Positions 4,183 through 11,798 of a stretch of DNA of 32,000 nucleotides are shown here, piece after piece. The notes under the pieces are model-generated. The model did not search any database. It worked only from the letters and a program-made list of their open reading frames with translations, and was not told the origin of the DNA. A program made the translations under genes and the position numbers. How positions within the stretch are numbered: position 1 is the first letter of the stretch; every line of letters starts with the position of its first letter. This DNA comes from Bellilinea caldifistulae (GTDB taxonomy: Bacteria > Chloroflexota > Anaerolineae > Anaerolineales > Anaerolineaceae): assembly GCF_001306055.1 (NCBI RefSeq), contig NZ_LGHJ01000001.1:20104-52103 (forward strand). Reading direction: 5' to 3'.

Positions 4183-4593
4183 TCAGGCGTGGTTTTCCTG
4201 TAAGATGGCAGCCCGCAGGTCTTCAACCACTTTTTGGGTGGAAGTGCCGGGGCCGTAGACAGCGCGCACGCCCATTGCCAGCAGGGCGGGGATGTCGCTT
4301 TCGGGGATGATGCCGCCGACAAAGACATGCACATGGCCCTGTCCGTTGGCGCGCAACAGTTCCAGCACGCGCGGCACCAGCGCCATGTGAGCGCCGGAGA
4401 GGATGGAAAGCCCCACCGCGTCCACATCCTCTTGTAAGGCGGCCTCGGCAATCATCTCCGGCGTTTGGCGCAGGCCGGTGTAGATGACTTCCATGCCGGC
4501 GTCCCGCAGAGCGCGGGCGACCACCTTGGCGCCGCGGTCGTGGCCATCCAAACCGGGTTTGGTAATCAGCACACGGATTTTACGTTCGGTCAT
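4183..4593 (-). CDS. methylmalonyl-CoA mutase, cobalamin-binding (C-terminal domain) subunit
   Basis: 136-aa ORF with the B12-binding DxHxxG signature ('[10 protein letters not shown]') and a Rossmann-like '[13 protein letters not shown]' segment. Confidence 0.88.
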
Positions 4594-4697
4594 TCGGTTT
4601 TGCCTCAGGGTGAAGTTGTTTCAATTATACCGCGTCCTGTCGTCAGACAATATCCCCTTATAAGGAAAGGAATAGTGTCATATCCGGCAGGTGACGG

Positions 4698-5387
4698 TTA
4701 ACCCTGAGGGGGCGGTTCTTCCAGCAGGTCATCCGTGACCTCGGCGCCGGGCAGAAGGAATAAGTCGGGATTTTTCCACATATAGACCACCGCCCCGGCG
4801 CGGCTCTTGACCCCGATTTTTTGGTAAGCCATGGTTACATAGTTCTTAATTGTGCCGGGTTGGAGGGCAAGTTGTTCAGAAATTCGAGCGTTTTCATATC
4901 CCAGGGCAATCAACGTCAGCACCTGCCGTTCGCGATTGCTCAAAGGCGATCGCAGCGGTCGTTCCCGGAGAAAAGTGTCCAGCATCTCCGGCAGGGAAGT
5001 GAAATCAGTGCGGCCATCCAGTAAAAACTGGATAACCTTAGCCAATTTTTCCAACTCAATTTCCAGCGGCAGCCAGGCATGAATGGTGATACGCTGCACG
5101 GCGCGCAGGATGACCGGCAGGCTGCTGTGGGGGGCGATCAGCAACGTCTTTGTGGCGGTAGGCAGGGGGGGAGCGGAAGCGTTCTGAGTCAGAGCAGCAA
5201 GGCGTGGTGCATCGAGGATCAGCACATCCGGTTCTGGCCGTTGGGAATCGGCAGCGAGGAACGAATCATCATCGAGAATGTGGTATTTGAAGGAAGGGAA
5301 TTCTTCCTTCAGGAAAGCGATCAATCCTTTTTTCAGAAGCGGGACGGAAACGGCGATGCAGACCAGAGGGGGAAAGTTGTTCGCCAT
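4698..5387 (-). CDS. LuxR-family transcriptional regulator with a degenerate receiver-like N-terminal domain
   Basis: The C-terminal LuxR/GerE HTH is 'SNRERQVLTLIALGYENARISEQLALQPGTIKNYVTMAYQKIGVKSRAGAV'. The start is placed at Met27 of the 4698..5465 ORF because AAAGGA lies 5-6 nt upstream of that ATG. The longer form is possible. Confidence 0.8.
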   Translation of the reverse strand: MANNFPPLVCIAVSVPLLKKGLIAFLKEEFPSFKYHILDDDSFLAADSQRPEPDVLILDAPRLAALTQNASAPPLPTATKTLLIAPHSSLPVILRAVQRITIHAWLPLEIELEKLAKVIQFLLDGRTDFTSLPEMLDTFLRERPLRSPLSNRERQVLTLIALGYENARISEQLALQPGTIKNYVTMAYQKIGVKSRAGAVVYMWKNPDLFLLPGAEVTDDLLEEPPPQG

Positions 5388-5465
5388 TCGATCCTTTAGA
5401 AAATGGTTCGTGGGAAAAAAGAACGCCGGTAAGTTTATGGTAAGGGAATCAATCCAATTTGTCAA
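5322..5465. repeat. left copy of a ~144-bp direct repeat (LuxR promoter, RBS and first ~20 codons)
   Basis: Near-identical to 10795..10939 in the same orientation, with a few substitutions and one 1-nt indel by manual alignment. Confidence 0.9.
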
Positions 5466-5476
5466 TAGGGGTCAAA

Positions 5477-5534
5477 GTCATGTCAGGGGGCATGACCGGC
5501 GGTACTTCCCCTTTGTTCTTCAATTTGCTATGAT
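5477..5534 (+). promoter_or_regulatory. candidate operator dyad GTCATG-N8-CATGAC plus weak sigma70-like promoter (TTCCCC-17-TATGAT)
   Basis: Dyad at 5477..5496. TTCCCC at 5506..5511 and TATGAT at 5529..5534. GAGAGGA RBS before ATG 5572. The whole block repeats upstream of cassette 2. Confidence 0.4.
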
Positions 5535-5571
5535 GGCTTTGGTGAAAAAACGCAGAAGCAGAGAGGACGAT

Positions 5572-6426
5572 ATGTTCAGAAAACCCTATATTGTTTTGAT
5601 TGCGCTGCTGGTGCTGGCAGCGGGTTTCATCTTGTTGATGGCACAAAAACCGGGTGAGGCAAAAAGTGAAGCGGCAGCGCAGACGGCTTTACCAACGGCT
5701 GTGGGAGAAGTGATCCAAGCCGCGCAAAGCGTTACACCGGTCATGGCCGCAGAAGTCGAAATGAGCGCGGCACAGGTGCGCGAGGCTTTGGTCGAACGGG
5801 CAAAGCAACATCTCTTCAAACCCGGCTGGGTACTGGTGCGCGAAACTTTCACCGATTTCACCAAGGCCGAAGACTACGTTGTGGTTCCGATGAACGGACA
5901 AATCATCCCCAAGAACTGGGTGCGCGAAACATGGTTGTTGGTGGATGAAGGTTTACAGGTTAAGGCAATGTTTTCCGAGAAAAAAATGCTGGATGACACA
6001 ATCGTATCTTTGACGCGTGCCAGTGATGGATCTTTTGGAAAGGCGTTTAATGCCGAAATTCTTCCAAATGTTCAGATTGACTACTGGACGAAAACCGAAA
6101 CCTTGGACCGACTTATTGAGCAGGGTGAGACTCAAAGGGTTGTTTTTCAATTTCTTTCGCTGGATGGAAAGCGGGTTTTGTATGCAGTTTATTCAGACGT
6201 TTTTCCCTCCCCTATTCGTATGGAGGGGCTGAAACAACCCCTTATTTCGTTTAGCACTGAGGATCATTATGATTGGGAAATCGGTCAGTTTCTGTTCAGT
6301 GAGGGGTGGGCAACGCTGACAGATGGCAACCGCCAACTTGTTGGTCGGCTAGAAATGAGCATTGATTGCAATTCCACCCCACCGGATGCGGTTTTGGAGG
6401 GGTTTTCAATCACGCCGGAGGAATAA
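5572..6426 (+). CDS. signal-anchored extracytoplasmic protein of unknown function (cassette 1, large gene)
   Basis: 284 aa. An N-terminal hydrophobic helix 'IVLIALLVLAAGFILLM' is followed by an Ala/Glu-rich linker. It is a paralog of 7006..7860 and has the same length. Start 5572 is chosen because copy 2 has an in-frame stop 18 nt upstream of the equivalent ATG, and the upstream region differs by a 1-nt indel between copies. Confidence 0.8.
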   Translation: MFRKPYIVLIALLVLAAGFILLMAQKPGEAKSEAAAQTALPTAVGEVIQAAQSVTPVMAAEVEMSAAQVREALVERAKQHLFKPGWVLVRETFTDFTKAEDYVVVPMNGQIIPKNWVRETWLLVDEGLQVKAMFSEKKMLDDTIVSLTRASDGSFGKAFNAEILPNVQIDYWTKTETLDRLIEQGETQRVVFQFLSLDGKRVLYAVYSDVFPSPIRMEGLKQPLISFSTEDHYDWEIGQFLFSEGWATLTDGNRQLVGRLEMSIDCNSTPPDAVLEGFSITPEE

Positions 6427-6878
6427 TGAAATCAAAATCAATCTCATTTAGGGTTTTCACGATTGTCTTTCTATTTCTGGTAATCCTGTCAGGTGAGGTT
6501 ATTGCAGCCGGCGGCAGCAAAACCGTTTCCGGCTCGATATCGGGTATCACCTATTTTGCAGAAAAAAGTGTGTACACCTATACTACCTCATGGACTGCGT
6601 CTGCCAAAAGTAGCGCAATTTCAAACATCTCTATCATTGGCTATACCTGGTGGACGGTTTATCGAATCTGTACCGATGATGTCTATGCTTATTACTCTCG
6701 TTCTGAGAATCAAAGTAACCGCAACAGTAACTACTTTGAAGACATAAAATGGATTGACCACTATCAATATTCCTGCAATCCCGGATATTTTGTTAAGAAG
6801 TCAGCCAGTCTCGGTAATCACCAGTTTACGTTGAATTCTACCCATCAGTACCCTTATGTGGAATATGTCTATCCTTAG
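6426..6878 (+). CDS. small secreted Tyr/Trp/Ser/Thr-rich protein with two Cys (cassette 1, small gene)
   Basis: 150 aa. Its ATG overlaps the upstream stop (TAATG) and GGAGG lies 5-6 nt upstream. The signal peptide is 'FRVFTIVFLFLVILSGEVIAA'. Paralog of 7857..8312. Confidence 0.8.
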   Translation: MKSKSISFRVFTIVFLFLVILSGEVIAAGGSKTVSGSISGITYFAEKSVYTYTTSWTASAKSSAISNISIIGYTWWTVYRICTDDVYAYYSRSENQSNRNSNYFEDIKWIDHYQYSCNPGYFVKKSASLGNHQFTLNSTHQYPYVEYVYP

Positions 6879-6911
6879 AAGAGAATAGGACCCTTTTTCG
6901 CTATGTTCAAA

Positions 6912-6969
6912 GTCATGGTGGGGGGCGTGACCGGCGGTACTTCCCCTTTGTTCTTCAATTTGCTATGAT
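6912..6969 (+). promoter_or_regulatory. second copy of dyad (GTCATG-N8-CGTGAC) plus TTCCCC-17-TATGAT promoter block
   Basis: Dyad at 6912..6931 with one arm mismatch. TTCCCC at 6941..6946 and TATGAT at 6964..6969. Confidence 0.4.
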
Positions 6970-7005
6970 GGCTTTGGTGAAAAACGCTGAAGCAGAGAGG
7001 ACGAT

Positions 7006-7860
7006 ATGTACAGAAAACCCTATATTGTTTTGATTGCGCTGCTGGTGCTGGCAGCGGGTTTCATCTTGTTGATGGCACAAAAACCGGGTGAGGCAAAAAG
7101 TGAAGCGGCAGCGCAGACGGCTTTACCAACGGCTGTGGGAGAAGTGATCCAAGCCGCGCAAAGCGTTACACCGGTCATGGCCGCAGAAGTCGAAATGAGC
7201 GCGGCACAGGTGCGCGAGGCTTTGGTCGAACGGGCAAAGCAACATCTCTTCAAACCCGGCTGGGTGATGGTGCGCGAGACGCTGACGAACTTCACCAACC
7301 GCGAGGAATATGTTGTGGTTCCAATGAACGGACAAATCATCCCCAAGAACTGGGTGCGCGAAACATGGTTGTTGGTGAATGAGGACTTAAAAGTAGTGGC
7401 GGGTTATTCTGTTGTAAAAAGTTTTAAAGGAGAACCTCTACTTGAGACAATCGTCAGTGATGGTTCTTTTGGAAAGATGATCCAACCAGAAAATTTACCC
7501 GGCTGGCAAGAGGAACACTGGCTATATCTTGACCTGTTCGAAAGAATGATCGAGTACGATGGCGGTAAAAGCGCAACTTTCTCCCTTATCGAACAGGGTG
7601 CCAAGCGTTTGCTGCGGGTCTTTTCCCAAGATTTCTATCCCTCTGCCGGTTATACCGAAGGGGTGGAAGGAGCCATTGTTTCATCCTTTTCAACCTCCTA
7701 TTATGACTGGGAAACTGGTCAATTTTTGCTCAGCGAGGACTGGGCAGTTTTGACCGATGGCAGTCATAAACAAATCAATCGCCTCGAGGTGGAAGTTGAA
7801 TATTCACCTGCCCCGCCTGCCGAGGTAGTTGCCCGATTCACCGGCGAGATAAAGCAATGA
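7006..7860 (+). CDS. signal-anchored extracytoplasmic protein of unknown function (cassette 2, large gene)
   Basis: 284 aa. The first ~125 residues are almost identical to 5572..6426. The C-terminal ~160 residues are strongly diverged but still alignable ('SDGSFGK', 'YDWExGQFL.SE.WA.LTDG'). Confidence 0.85.
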   Translation: MYRKPYIVLIALLVLAAGFILLMAQKPGEAKSEAAAQTALPTAVGEVIQAAQSVTPVMAAEVEMSAAQVREALVERAKQHLFKPGWVMVRETLTNFTNREEYVVVPMNGQIIPKNWVRETWLLVNEDLKVVAGYSVVKSFKGEPLLETIVSDGSFGKMIQPENLPGWQEEHWLYLDLFERMIEYDGGKSATFSLIEQGAKRLLRVFSQDFYPSAGYTEGVEGAIVSSFSTSYYDWETGQFLLSEDWAVLTDGSHKQINRLEVEVEYSPAPPAEVVARFTGEIKQ

Positions 7861-8312
7861 TCACAAACAGGCATCAAAAGCGGCTTATTCTATGGCTGGC
7901 TTTTATTTTGCTGGTCACCCAATTTGGTGAGAGTTCGGCTGGTGGCGGCAGCAAAACCGTTTCCGGCTCCATTTCGGGTATCACCTATTTTGCAGAAAAA
8001 AGTGTGTACACCTACACCAATACATGGACTGCGTCTGTCAAAAGTAGCACCGTCACAAATATCTCAATTATTGGCTACACCTGGTGGACGGTTTATCAGA
8101 TTTGCACAAACGATGTTTATTCTTACTATATTCGGTCAGAGAATAAAAATAACCGAAATAGCAGTTATTACGAGGACTCAAAATATGTTTATTACAAAGA
8201 TTACCCATGTCCAGGTGGTTCGTATATCAAAAAAACAGCCAGTCTCGGTAATCACCAGTTTACGTTGAATTCTACCCATCAGTACCCTTATGTGGAATAT
8301 GTCTATCCTTAG
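7857..8312 (+). CDS. small secreted Tyr/Trp/Ser/Thr-rich protein with two Cys (cassette 2, small gene)
   Basis: 151 aa with an ATGA start/stop overlap. Its signal peptide is unrelated to that of copy 1. The mature part is highly similar ('GGSKTVSGSISGITYFAEKSVYTYT...ASLGNHQFTLNSTHQYPYVEYVYP'). Confidence 0.85.
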   Translation: MITNRHQKRLILWLAFILLVTQFGESSAGGGSKTVSGSISGITYFAEKSVYTYTNTWTASVKSSTVTNISIIGYTWWTVYQICTNDVYSYYIRSENKNNRNSSYYEDSKYVYYKDYPCPGGSYIKKTASLGNHQFTLNSTHQYPYVEYVYP

Positions 8313-8340
8313 AAGAGAATAGGACCCTTTTTCGCTATGT

Positions 8341-8378
8341 TCAAAGTCATGGTGGGGAGCATGACCGGCGGCACTTCC
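8341..8378 (+). repeat. partial third copy of the unit start, including dyad GTCATG-N8-CATGAC at 8346..8365
   Basis: The sequence after the stop at 8312 repeats the inter-unit tail and the dyad. Homology ends after 'acttcc'. Confidence 0.8.
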
Positions 8379-8537
8379 TATAGCCGACCTTTTTTGCTAT
8401 AAAAAAATTAGTCTTTTTTATATCTCACCGTGGGTGGAAAATCGCCCCCTTGAGCAAGAGGATTTTTCCTTCATTTTTTGAATTTTTATTCACCCCCCGT
8501 TTGCGCTAAAAGACAAAATTGGAACTAAAGTTGGCGA

Positions 8538-8750
8538 ATGGATATAAAACTGAGATTGACCCAACGGGAGAAGCAAATACTGGAATTGTTGTGCGAGGGA
8601 AAGACCAATTCTCAAATTGCGAGAAACTTGCAAATTTCCCCAAAAACGGTCGAATCTAATCTGACCAGAGTATATCGAAAATTGGGCGTGAACAATCGCA
8701 CTGCAGCCGTTGCAGCATATTTTGTTGAATTAAATCGAGAGAAAAATTAA
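8538..8750 (+). CDS. stand-alone LuxR/GerE-type HTH transcriptional regulator
   Basis: 70-aa ORF consisting of the HTH only: 'LTQREKQILELLCEGKTNSQIARNLQISPKTVESNLTRVYRKLGV'. Confidence 0.8.
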   Translation: MDIKLRLTQREKQILELLCEGKTNSQIARNLQISPKTVESNLTRVYRKLGVNNRTAAVAAYFVELNREKN

Positions 8751-8836
8751 GGGAAATCCTTATATTGAAGTTTGTCTTGAGAGAGGGTATATTTAAATCG
8801 GCCGAATGGGTGCAAGAGAGAAAAGGGGAGGGAAGT

Positions 8837-8944
8837 AATGAATAAGAGAAACCTTTTTAATCTTGGAATGATTGGTTTGGTCTTTATGGTGGGCTTTTCC
8901 GTGGTGGGGGGAGCGCCGTTACCCGATGGGGGAATTCGTGATGA
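8837..8944 (+). other. 35-codon mini-ORF encoding a signal-peptide-like sequence, probably the detached 5' end of the CHAP gene
   Basis: A strong GGGGAGGG RBS lies 6-8 nt upstream of ATG 8837. Translation is 'MNKRNLFNLGMIGLVFMVGFSVVGGAPLPDGGIRE*'. It is out of frame with the downstream CHAP ORF. A third frame is open over 8871..9014. Confidence 0.4.
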
Positions 8945-9081
8945 AACCTGCCGGGAAGGGTTATCTGAATTTGTGACCGAAGCGAAGGATTGCTCAAATC
9001 GGCATTACGATTGATCAGCCGCAGCCGTTTGTTGACCCGCAGGCGATTATCCGGCGTTATACGGCTTGGTGTTCGCAAGGA

Positions 9082-9786
9082 TTGCTGGATTTGGATATCT
9101 GGCAAACGATGGGAATGACAATGGATGAGTGGATGAAATGGTATGAAGATACCCGTCAGCCGTTGGGAACGGTTGCGTCTCGCATCACTATCGGTGAAAT
9201 TGAAGCGGTTCGTTATGAAGAATCCACTCTTTGGACGACCCTGTGGAGCGGAGAAAAATATATCTATCGCTTGTGGTACACCCATAGGGGAGATCAATCG
9301 GGTGAGGAATTTTATAAAAGGGTCTTGAACTCCGTTGGTTTTTTGAATGAGGAGCCGATCAAGGGGGAAGATGCATCCCAATCGTTTCAAGGTTTATCGC
9401 TGGAAGGCTTTGCCACAGTCAATCCTCTTGTCACAACCTGTTGTGGATATACATCGCCGGGTAATCCCTTTGAGTGCTGTAACAACAAGGGAAATTGTGT
9501 CTGGTGGGTGTATTACAAATATGGTTATGTGCCGTTCCGAGGAGATGCAGGTAAGTGGTATGGACAAGTGCCCGATTACCCGGATTGGCGCAGGGGAAGA
9601 TATCCGAATAGAGGGATGAATATCGCGTGGTGGTCAGGATCTCCTGGTCACGTTGCCTTTATAGCGAACTATCCTGGAGGAGGGACAGTAACCATAACCG
9701 AGATGTTGATTTGTACATCCTGCGGAAGGACGCGTAATTTGAGTGTAACCGCTCCCGAAGGATACATGTGGACAATTTACAACTGA
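9082..9786 (+). CDS. CHAP-domain (NlpC/P60 superfamily) cysteine peptidase/amidase, 5' end apparently disrupted
   Basis: The C-terminal half shows a CHAP-like Cys...His pattern ('GNCVWWVYYKYGY ... SPGHVAFIA'). The reading frame is open from 8977, but the first start candidate is TTG 9082 with poor RBS context. There is no signal peptide in this frame. Confidence 0.65.
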   Translation: MLDLDIWQTMGMTMDEWMKWYEDTRQPLGTVASRITIGEIEAVRYEESTLWTTLWSGEKYIYRLWYTHRGDQSGEEFYKRVLNSVGFLNEEPIKGEDASQSFQGLSLEGFATVNPLVTTCCGYTSPGNPFECCNNKGNCVWWVYYKYGYVPFRGDAGKWYGQVPDYPDWRRGRYPNRGMNIAWWSGSPGHVAFIANYPGGGTVTITEMLICTSCGRTRNLSVTAPEGYMWTIYN

Positions 9787-9829
9787 GCAATTCGGTTTTA
9801 ATGATTTTCTCTTTTGGAGGTCAGGGCAG

Positions 9830-10573
9830 ATGATAAAAAGCATTGTTCGTCAGCTTCTTCTGATTGCAGGGTTGGTTTTTATAAGCAATTGCAGGGGAGA
9901 AATTGACAACTTCCCTTCTACTCCAATTGAGACTCGAAATTTGCCAACAATTACCCCCTCATCAGAGATAAAATCGACACCTCCCCAAATGGTTGATGAA
10001 ATTGAAACGGTCATTCCACTCAAACCCACCCGAATTCCAACCCCTACGGAAGAGGATGAAATATTTTTCCAAGAATATTGTGGCAAGGAATTTGTCTCTG
10101 CTGTGAAGCTCCTTCCTGAAAGGGAAATAAATTGGTTTCGATATAACCACTACCTTTACCCTTTCTCAATAGCATTCCCCTCGGATTGGAATCTCATAGA
10201 ATGTGATAATTCTATATACCTGTTTCCGGATAGTGAGCCTTCGATTCGTCTGGCAGTCCGTTTCAAATACTCGAATGAAAAGAAACATATCTTAAGAACC
10301 GGCGTGCCGGCGGGTGACGCGGTTCATGTTGGCACGGTGCAGTTCGTCGGTCAAACCATTCGCAAGACAATCATCCGCTACGAGGGCAAGGATAAAGTTG
10401 TCCTCTACGGCTACAAAGAGGATTTGCCCTATCAAATCCCGGTCGGTAATCTGATCTTTACCATCAGTCTGGATGATGTTGGTTCTCGTTATTATGAGGA
10501 TGTCGAGCTTTCGCCCGAAATTCAACAGCTGGCCGATGCCATTGTCGAAAGCATTCGGCTGACTTCGCCATAG
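9830..10573 (+). CDS. putative lipoprotein of unknown function
   Basis: 247-aa ORF with GGAGG about 9 nt upstream. Signal peptide with lipobox-like 'LVFISNC', followed by a Pro/Thr-rich linker. Confidence 0.7.
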   Translation: MIKSIVRQLLLIAGLVFISNCRGEIDNFPSTPIETRNLPTITPSSEIKSTPPQMVDEIETVIPLKPTRIPTPTEEDEIFFQEYCGKEFVSAVKLLPEREINWFRYNHYLYPFSIAFPSDWNLIECDNSIYLFPDSEPSIRLAVRFKYSNEKKHILRTGVPAGDAVHVGTVQFVGQTIRKTIIRYEGKDKVVLYGYKEDLPYQIPVGNLIFTISLDDVGSRYYEDVELSPEIQQLADAIVESIRLTSP

Positions 10574-10684
10574 GCATGAGCGATTCGATAAACTTCGTGC
10601 GCCGAATTGGCCATGAAGTGCTTTGGCTGTTTTGCCGCCCTCGTGTGTGGAAAAACATGTCGAACGTCGCTGGCACGCCCCGTT

Positions 10685-10861
10685 TTACTGTTTCATGACC
10701 AGTCCCGTTGCACTGGCAAATATCAACGCTCCCATCGCTACTGGCGGGGCGAGCATGCCAGGGCTGCAGTGTGTGCCTCCACGAAAAAGGTGAACAATCC
10801 TGTTTTTCAGAAGTGGGACGGAAACGGCGATGCAGACCAGAGGGGGAAAGTTGCTCGCCAT
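10685..10861 (-). pseudogene. truncated/chimeric remnant of the LuxR regulator 5' end
   Basis: 'MASNFPPLVCIAVSVPLLK' matches the start of the 4698..5387 product ('MANNFPPLVCIAVSVPLLKK'). It then diverges and stops after 58 codons. It carries the same upstream RBS and promoter sequence. Confidence 0.7.
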
Positions 10862-10939
10862 TCGATCCTTTAGAAAATGGTTCGTGGGAAAAAAGAACGC
10901 CGGTAAGTTTATGGTAAGGGAATCAATCCAATCTGTCAA
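10795..10939. repeat. right copy of the ~144-bp direct repeat
   Basis: Near-identical to 5322..5465. Confidence 0.9.
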
Positions 10940-11087
10940 AGCACCCTTGAACCTGCTTTGAAATGCGCTATTTCGCAAAACGGCGAAGATCAGCCGAGGC
11001 GACGGACTTCCCCGCTGTCGAAAAGAGAAACAAATCCCCTCGCCAAACCTTGACGTGGTTTACCGTCAACTCCCAAAGGGCAATTTC

Positions 11088-11140
11088 TTGACAAAAATTC
11101 CAAATTGTTATAAACTAGTTTGTAATACAAACCAGTTTAT
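11088..11140 (+). promoter_or_regulatory. sigma70-type promoter (TTGACA-17-TAAACT) overlapped by a 13-bp-arm inverted repeat operator
   Basis: TTGACA at 11088..11093 and TAAACT at 11111..11116. The palindrome is ATAAACTAGTTTG (11110..11122), spacer TAATA, CAAACCAGTTTAT (11128..11140), with 12 of 13 positions complementary. AGGAG RBS lies before ATG 11157. Confidence 0.6.
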
Positions 11141-11156
11141 AAAATCAGGAGACCGC

Positions 11157-11798
11157 ATGAAATCCCCGCTTGAAACCGCTCAAAAGCGCACCCGCCGTTA
11201 TTGGTACGAGGACGGGCTCTCTGAAATGGCGGCCGGCGCTGTCATTCTCTTGATGGCGCTGATCAATCTGGCGATTGCCCTGCTCGCACCAGCGGGCTGG
11301 AAAGGCTGGCTTTCGGCGGTGGGCCTGCCAGTGATGGTGATCGGCGGAGGCGTTCTTGCCCGCCTGCTGGTAGCAAGGCTGAAAGAACGGCTGACTTACC
11401 CGCGCACCGGTTACATCCGATACCCACGCCCCAAGCCGACCCGCCGTTTTCTGAGCGCCGGCATCGCCATCGGCGTGGCCTTGATCGTGACGATCATGAG
11501 TGCCTGGTTCTCCGCCGCCCAAACCGAGCGACTCATCCCCGCCCTGACCGGTTTGCTGACGGCCATTTTGATCCTCTCGATTGGGGCGAGCATTGGACTG
11601 GTGCGTTTCTACCTTTTAGCCGTTTGGCAGTTTGGTTTTGGCTTACTCGGCAGCCGCTTGAATTTACCCGCCCCTTACGATCTGGTCTTGTTCTTCGGCG
11701 CGCTGGGTATCGGCCTGTTCATCAGCGGGGGAATCACCCTGCTTGGCTACCTGCGCAACAACCCGCTGCCGCCAGCCAACGATGAGGAACAGTCATGA
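11157..11798 (+). CDS. integral membrane protein of unknown function
   Basis: 213 aa from the ATG preceded by AGGAG. It has several long hydrophobic segments. Its stop overlaps the next start (ATGA). Confidence 0.7.
   Translation: MKSPLETAQKRTRRYWYEDGLSEMAAGAVILLMALINLAIALLAPAGWKGWLSAVGLPVMVIGGGVLARLLVARLKERLTYPRTGYIRYPRPKPTRRFLSAGIAIGVALIVTIMSAWFSAAQTERLIPALTGLLTAILILSIGASIGLVRFYLLAVWQFGFGLLGSRLNLPAPYDLVLFFGALGIGLFISGGITLLGYLRNNPLPPANDEEQS

Follow-up and report, generated by a model that had tools for sequence, protein, structure and literature searches.

Segmental concerted evolution of a tandemly duplicated two-gene operon in Bellilinea caldifistulae

Introduction

In Helicobacter pylori, the genes babA, babB and babC have near-identical 5' and 3' regions that enclose a divergent middle conserved within each type, intragenomic conversion generates chimeras, and the occupancy of the loci varies by strain (PMC4552749). 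Here, we describe a tandem array of two two-gene units in Bellilinea caldifistulae, for which babA/babB represent the closest described case. The array lies in a stretch of 32,000 nt (RefSeq assembly GCF_001306055.1, contig NZ_LGHJ01000001.1, positions 20,104 to 52,103 of the forward strand) that was analysed as a whole; we refer to it as the window, and positions are those of the window unless another locus is named. Like the bab genes, the two units have identical ends, a type-conserved middle, chimeras formed by conversion and variable occupancy. Unlike the bab genes, which are dispersed, code for outer-membrane adhesins and have phase-variable repeats, the units described here are adjacent complete operons in tandem, the mosaic covers two genes and a promoter, there are no slipped-strand repeats, and the encoded proteins are unrelated.

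Long-lasting concerted evolution is described as rare in prokaryotes (PMC6053082). As in duplicates such as tufA/tufB and the rRNA operons, paralogs in the array are closer to each other within a genome than to their orthologues, and this recurs across lineages. In contrast to these duplicates, in which the whole gene is homogenised, homogenisation in the array is segmental with hard common boundaries, two types persist, and the gene pair is lineage-restricted and accessory rather than part of a core pathway. As detailed below, we consider it very probable that the array consists of old tandem paralogs that undergo segmental concerted evolution by gene conversion and occasional unequal crossover.

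The duplicated unit is a stepwise mosaic

The array is a tandem duplication with a period of 1434 nt (unit 1, ~5472-6906; unit 2, 6907-8340), and these two are the only copies of the unit in the genome, which is available as a 31-contig assembly. Each unit comprises a 20-bp palindrome, an extended -10-like element TGCTATGAT, a gene of 284 codons (the large gene) and a gene of 150 or 151 codons (the small gene) with an overlapping start.

We determined paralog identity per segment from a gapped nucleotide alignment and segment counts. Identity is 95% in the promoter block (5478-5571), perfect over a run of 255 nt (5577-5831), 69% in a diverged patch of 49 nt within the N-terminal segment (5832-5880) and 98%, with one mismatch, over 5881-5943. 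It then falls to ~50% in the centre (5944-6509; 52% in the part encoding the C-terminal domain of the large protein and 43% in the part encoding the signal peptide of the small protein), rises to 97% over 6510-6580, falls again to 75% (6581-6750) and 44% (6751-6800), and is 99% over 6801-6932. These steps are sharp, identity dropping within 10-20 nt. Because the longest identical run after shuffling of alignment columns had a mean of 20 nt and a maximum of 42 nt, the observed run of 255 nt places the stepwise pattern far beyond chance. At the protein level, the two large proteins match at 117 of 124 residues in the N-terminal part and at 55 of 160 in the remainder (residues 125-284); the mature small proteins are 76% identical in amino acids and 80% in nucleotides, and only their first 26 and last 25 residues are identical.

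A preliminary description, made from the sequence alone, had pictured this unit as having identical ends and one contiguous hypervariable centre. The mosaic that it reported is real and stepwise rather than smooth, and the block coordinates that it gave for the two copies, 5950-6510 and 7385-7945, are correct to ~7 nt. It also had the first ~125 codons of the large gene as near-identical, which applies to most of them (98-100%) and misses the 49-nt patch. The statement that the copies are identical over most of the mature small protein went too far, and so did that of a single hypervariable centre: there is a second diverged stretch (6581-6800), and the centre exists as two conserved types, described below.

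Paralogs are homogenised within genomes outside the centre

We compared paralog and orthologue distances in five genomes with both units. Over codons 1-87 of the large gene, the identity of paralogs is 1.00, 1.00, 0.98, 1.00 and 0.84 in the five genomes, whereas that of orthologues is 0.95-0.71; in the centre, this relation is reversed (~0.50 between paralogs and 0.83-1.00 between orthologues). Over the same codons, four of the five genomes have a synonymous distance (dS) between paralogs of 0-0.07, and the remaining one, L013 (related loci are designated by L numbers), has 0.34. Between orthologues, dS is 0.11-0.99, and the ratio of nonsynonymous distance (dN) to dS is 0.26-0.47. Across homogenised tract 1 (Table 1), dS is 0.016 between paralogs versus 0.11-0.81 between orthologues. 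Because synonymous distances are near 0 between paralogs and high between orthologues, the identity of the paralogs does not stem from constraint at the protein level.

Trees of individual segments separate the same two histories. In the IQ-TREE phylogeny of 5478-5831, within-genome paralogs pair (100/99 for L005 and 88/99 for L009), and forced monophyly of the copies of type A, i.e. those with a centre like that of copy 1, was rejected (p = 5e-37 in the approximately unbiased (AU) test). In the phylogeny of 5944-6509, types A and B form clades with support of 100/100 each, and forced within-genome pairing was rejected (p = 2e-61 and 6e-6). FastTree and IQ-TREE are concordant, and the likelihood gaps in the tests of forced trees are 207-495 log units.

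Recent tracts are visible in L014, an ENA metagenome contig that is 98.8-99.1% identical to the window over 12 kb. All 18 differences between the window and L014 in 5545-5877 turn the A copy of L014 to the B state, giving a tract of at least 333 nt. Moreover, L014 has the change G>A both at 5653 and at the homologous site 7087 (5653+1434), and its B copy is rendered A-like by 7323 A>G. This comparison of two closely related sequences indicates that conversion is ongoing and that L014 carries a fresh tract. Tract ends differ between genomes: the patch at 5832-5880 is B-type in the A copy of L014 and L005 and unconverted in the window, L009 and L013, while L013 shows conversion in the small gene from 6581 onward. 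However, all five genomes share the outer boundaries at ~5944, 6510 and 6801. Trees of individual segments, AU tests and synonymous distances, together with a fresh tract between strains that are ~99% identical, therefore uphold the proposal in the preliminary description that gene conversion homogenises the flanks.

We considered whether the identical segments could instead be held by selection on the sequence itself, be it protein, mRNA structure or regulatory DNA, and not by recombination. The promoter, the palindrome, the ribosome-binding site and the membrane anchor all lie in these segments and are plausible targets of constraint. Yet between genomes these segments diverge by 5-29%, with the orthologue dS and dN/dS values given above, while paralog dS is ~0 in four of five genomes, trees of the N-terminal segment group by genome, and in one strain a single substitution is present at the homologous sites of both copies. 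Selection on the sequence is, on this evidence, almost certainly not the explanation.

Likewise, a mosaic could arise as an assembly artefact if strain variants or the repeat were collapsed or chimerically joined in a metagenome-assembled genome (MAG). The genome of the window is in 31 contigs, the related records are MAGs, and some loci look repeat-bounded, e.g. L031 at 1638 nt. Nevertheless, NCBI, ENA and JGI together provide at least five independent assemblies that have the same mosaic with the same boundaries, the contigs concerned being 7.7-499 kb long; the N-terminal segments of L013 differ by 16%, demonstrating that assemblers keep the copies apart; and a collapse would not yield two complete, in-frame and differently typed units. 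Thus, we regard an artefact as highly improbable.

The centre exists as two types under purifying selection

In ten related MAG loci, the C-terminal 160 residues of the large protein are of two types, A (like copy 1) and B (like copy 2), with orthologues within a type being 83-97% identical, and the small proteins likewise are of two types, a and b. Among 5.8 billion proteins, we identified 14 large-protein and six small-protein clusters, all from Bellilinea-like Anaerolineae MAGs. All 14 clusters with this N-terminus are type A or type B. The further C-terminal variants anticipated in the preliminary description did not appear: a third type on the same N-terminus was sought among the 5.8 billion proteins (1.84 billion representatives) and was not found. 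More distant homologues of the large protein have wholly different N-termini.

Between the A and B centres, paralog dS is saturated (1.7 to infinity) at a dN of ~0.6. Within types, the dN/dS of the centre is 0.10-0.51, indicating that the centre is under ordinary purifying selection and not diversification. In a protein tree of the C-terminal domain, A and B are sister groups that together make up a clade (0.985), and the stem leading to B is long; because of this sister relation, we suggest that a duplication took place within the lineage and that B then diverged fast. We also considered that type B had been imported from another lineage and rejected this in view of the sister-group relation in the same tree.

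Unit number, unit order and centres vary between strains

All related loci are located at one chromosomal site, adjoining a divergent GerE/LuxR gene and downstream of meaB/B12-binding genes. The order is luxR-A-B in the window, L014, L009 and L010 and luxR-B-A in L005, L013 and L016; L006 and L017 have A only, L011 and L008 have B only, and in L012 the large gene is a diverged B and the gene after it, of 185 aa, is unrelated. Between L006 and L012, the flanks are 98.7% identical on one side and 99.4% on the other while the centres are different (971 and 1226 unalignable bases), with a left breakpoint at codon ~122 of the large gene and a right breakpoint ~30 nt past the stop of the small gene. 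A 60-70-nt operator/promoter element is present on both sides of the L006/L012 module, and the window's element at 5472-5509 and 8341-8378 behaves likewise. Similarly, the sister assemblies L031 and L011 hold A and B between the same flanks.

We note that the 185-aa gene of L012 (6931-7488 of that locus) is lipoprotein-like and replaces the small secreted partner in a strain ~99% identical to L006. It has no family match, and a search of the window's genome gave no clear homologue (best E 0.32).

From the sequences, all strain states can be derived from a two-copy array by recombination. Specifically, unequal crossover in the N-terminal repeat would leave B and crossover in the tail repeat would leave A, while excision via one repeat and re-insertion via the other would swap the order. 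The idea of cassette-like replacement, raised in the preliminary description, accordingly keeps part of its ground, in that strains which are otherwise near-identical differ in their centre from codon ~122 on and the units vary in order and number, but all of this can arise by recombination within a two-copy array.

These arrangements also bear on a different reading, namely that the locus is of the polymorphic toxin or surface-variation kind, with a constant N-terminal delivery or anchor part that receives pooled C-terminal modules and their cognate partners by horizontal transfer and recombination, the centre being a diversifying specificity cassette. Polymorphic toxin and contact-dependent inhibition (CDI) loci do share with the array a constant N-terminal part, an alternative C-terminal part, a linked downstream gene, tandem copies and strain-variable modules. 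The near-identical flanks around different centres in L006/L012 with the unrelated 185-aa partner in L012, the occurrence of A and B between the same flanks in L031 and L011, the extracytoplasmic location of both the large and the small protein, and the fact that the centre type of the large protein and the type of the small protein always travel together would all be in line with such a locus. However, only A, B and one diverged B were found in the entire protein search, i.e. two or three module types, with a within-type dN/dS of 0.1-0.5, and A and B are each other's closest relatives. No match to toxin, immunity or delivery domains was obtained with Pfam, NCBIfam, PADLOC and PHROGs; instead, the N-terminus of the large protein is predicted by AlphaFold2 to be a transmembrane helix, a linker and the first strands of the same fold, with no recognisable delivery domain, and in the same model the breakpoint separates two strands that belong to a single domain. 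Furthermore, the downstream gene codes for a secreted protein conserved across the family; unlike CDI orphan cassettes, the copies are all complete units, each having a promoter and a start codon of its own; and the strain patterns are all derivable by unequal crossover in a two-copy array. The likeness to polymorphic surface or toxin-like loci drawn in the preliminary description is, therefore, not sustained for these two conserved types, and we consider this reading improbable.

A model for segmental concerted evolution of the array

In the model that we favour, i.e. segmental concerted evolution of old tandem paralogs, the operon would encode two proteins: one that is anchored in the membrane and possibly LolA/LprG-like, and a secreted one of ~150 aa whose translation is coupled to that of the first. 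The duplication would have occurred within a Bellilinea-like lineage, and the centre of one copy (residues 125-284, the signal peptide and part of the mature small protein) would have diverged fast into type B, with both types since kept by purifying selection. We infer that RecA-type homologous recombination between the copies overwrites four segments: the promoter/operator; codons 1-124 of the large gene; in the small gene, the ~24 codons that open the mature part; and the final 26 codons of that gene together with the spacer. This recombination would be non-reciprocal gene conversion and occasionally unequal crossover, such that the overwritten segments would remain near-identical within a genome while drifting between genomes. 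Conversion would halt where ~50% identity prevents pairing, and selection against losing either type may add to this effect. The homologous flanks would also permit unit loss, reordering and centre exchange between strains.

Several points weigh against this model or limit it. First, codons 1-124 of the large gene have a GC content at third positions (GC3) of 0.61-0.68, compared with 0.45-0.52 in the rest of the large gene and 0.40-0.48 in the small gene (5572-5943 versus 5944-8312; also in L006, L011 and L012). This step coincides exactly with the conversion boundary, and simple conversion does not explain it. GC-biased gene conversion was considered as a source of the step and found no support as a general account: other homogenised tracts do not appear GC-rich (regional GC of 0.38-0.46 over 6500-6999), single-copy genomes also show the step, and distant relatives lack it. 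Second, the genomes compared are MAGs or metagenome contigs, in which repeats of 350-470 nt can mis-join or collapse, and the single-copy and B-only states (L008, L011 and L031) may be assembly paths through the repeat. Third, the groups received the labels A and B once a FastTree phylogeny had been inspected, which makes the p-values of the AU tests somewhat optimistic; despite these generous p-values, the size of the likelihood gaps leaves no doubt about the tree comparison. Finally, the data are compatible with gene conversion and reciprocal unequal crossover alike, and the two cannot be told apart.

The array represents a clear natural case of partial concerted evolution, in which homogenised and protected segments alternate within a 1.4-kb operon with the same boundaries in every genome. 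It also holds a warning for the analysis of MAGs: arrays of this kind are broken or collapsed by assembly, and the N-terminal part would give a misleading gene tree. While the process is well known, the gene pair is uncharacterised, and the maintained A/B duality invites the question of binding specificity.

Predicted products and distribution of the gene pair

Scans of the large and small proteins with Pfam, NCBIfam, PADLOC and PHROGs gave sub-threshold noise only; a Pfam scan of 61 family members revealed no consistent family, PDB sequence searches with profiles, including a profile of 61 sequences, gave no match, and neither did an Rfam scan of 4500-11500. The AlphaFold2 model of the large protein (predicted local distance difference test score (pLDDT) of 67, with 70-90 in the core) has a transmembrane helix at residues 6-23, a disordered Ala-rich linker, a helix at residues 66-80 and one beta-rich extracytoplasmic domain with two central helices. 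In this model, the conversion boundary at residue 125 falls, with medium confidence, in a loop that is flanked by the strands 115-124 and 130-139 and is internal to one predicted domain. The top Foldseek matches are LprG, NE2245 (LolA superfamily), DUF1329 and LmcA, with E of 5e-5 to 6e-4 and Foldseek probabilities of 0.9-1.0 at TM-scores of only 0.2-0.37 for a model with a pLDDT of 67; no significant sequence match was obtained against curated LolA-clan families or solved structures even with the 61-sequence profile. Thus, the large protein possibly has a LolA/LprG-like fold, which we treat as a lead and not as membership. For the small protein, the AlphaFold2 model (pLDDT 52) is too poor for use. 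Its family comprises 16 clusters, none of them annotated, that share a signal peptide, the motif IGYTWWT..C, a second Cys and the motif LGNHxF.

When clustered at 50%, the large family has around 105 representatives. In a sample of 400 Chloroflexota genomes, to which the window's own was added, it is limited to two taxonomic families of one order. A further sample of 150 genomes from the taxonomic family of the window contained it in five. In distant members, a gene for a secreted ~150-aa protein with two Cys directly follows the large gene, often near REC/GerE regulators, and because this pairing is kept, we take the large and the small gene to be an old functional unit. The pair is order-restricted within Chloroflexota and uncharacterised. 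The partner gene in distant members is sometimes too diverged for the small-protein profile. In L037, L040 and L036, secreted ~150-aa proteins with two Cys right after distant homologues of the large gene were missed or barely found by this profile, and from these misses it follows that the small partner evolves much faster than the anchored protein.

GerS of Clostridioides difficile is a LolA-like protein that acts by binding a partner protein (10.1101/2025.01.13.632879). Like GerS and LprG of Mycobacterium, the large protein is membrane-tethered and extracytoplasmic with a predicted half-barrel fold; unlike these proteins, it lacks sequence-level membership, its tether is a transmembrane helix and not a lipobox, and the TM-scores are 0.28-0.37 on a model with a pLDDT of 67. 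By analogy with GerS, we tentatively suggest that the anchored half-barrel protein could bind the co-expressed small protein or a hydrophobic ligand, with A and B as two specificities, although we would not expect this to be the likelier outcome. A more specific version is unlikely: A and B might each represent a cognate pair with its own specificity, both belonging to an extracytoplasmic system that is undescribed and restricted to one Chloroflexota order. In this system, the variable half of the anchored LolA-like protein would recognise the variable part of its own co-translated small protein, as a self/non-self, bacteriocin-immunity or signalling pair under LuxR control. If so, segmental conversion would keep regulation, anchoring and the shared interface identical, and recombination in the flanks would let strains shuffle specificities.

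Genes and regulatory elements of the array

The features of the array and the adjoining genes are collected in Table 1. The likely start of the divergent luxR gene is the ATG at 5387, giving a protein of 229 aa as in the orthologues, and a 229-aa GerE gene is found at the same position in all related loci. The palindrome is present in three copies (5477-5496, 6912-6931 and 8346-8365), each then followed by CGGCGGTACTTCC, upstream of both units and of the small luxR gene, and these copies are kept in related loci. The arrangement of a 20-bp inverted repeat before a promoter with an adjoining LuxR/GerE gene corresponds to a LuxR-box-type operon layout; based on this layout, the palindrome is a candidate LuxR operator. 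It is also the likely site of the original unequal crossover.

Table 1 Features of the tandem array and adjoining genes (positions in the window)
Feature	Position	Strand	Remarks
LuxR/GerE-family regulator	4698..5465	-	Divergent from unit 1; Pfam GerE 8e-16
20-bp palindrome GTCATG-N8-CATGAC, copy 1	5477..5496	.	Candidate operator; ~35 nt upstream of the extended -10-like TGCTATGAT at 5526-5534
Homogenised tract 1	5478..5831	+	Promoter block and codons 1-87; 5577-5831 identical between copies
Large gene, type A, 284 aa	5572..6426	+	Open reading frame (ORF); orthologues 83-97% identical
Unconverted patch, codons 88-103	5832..5880	+	TFTDFTKAEDY vs TLTNFTNREEY; 69% here
Homogenised tract 2, codons 104-124	5881..5943	+	One mismatch
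Diverged centre, unit 1	5944..6509	+	Type-A C-terminal 160 residues of large protein and signal peptide of small protein a
Small gene a, 150 aa	6426..6878	+	Signal peptide and ~123-aa mature part, 2 Cys; start overlaps large-gene stop (TAATG)
Homogenised tract 3	6510..6580	+	Mature N-terminus of small protein; 97%
Second, partly diverged stretch in small gene	6581..6800	+	75% then 44%; first part converted in L013
Homogenised tract 4	6801..6932	+	Last 26 small-gene codons, 3' spacer, palindrome copy 2 (6912-6931)
Large gene, type B, 284 aa	7006..7860	+	ORF
Diverged centre, unit 2	7378..7943	+	Type-B C-terminal domain and signal peptide of small protein b
Small gene b, 151 aa	7857..8312	+	Start overlaps large-gene stop (ATGA)
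Third repeat copy, start only (38 nt)	8341..8378	+	Palindrome copy 3 (8346-8365) inside; then TGCTATAAA and small luxR gene
Helix-turn-helix-only LuxR/GerE protein, 70 aa	8538..8750	+	Downstream of array; Pfam GerE 3.4e-21

Surroundings of the array

A direct repeat of 137 nt (5329-5465 and 10803-10939; 98% identical) corresponds to the 5' end of luxR and its upstream region. The repeat pair flanks a lower-GC stretch of 5.47 kb that contains both units, the small luxR gene, a CHAP gene and a 247-aa ORF. The genes downstream of the array vary between related genomes. In the window, the CHAP-domain ORF (9082-9786) is split from a signal-peptide ORF of 58 codons (8838-9014), whereas the near-identical strain L014 has a single CHAP gene of 354 aa. 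The alignment of the window and L014 breaks at 8985-9006 with a length difference of 118 nt, which is no multiple of 3, and this suggests a frameshifting deletion at the CHAP gene in the window.

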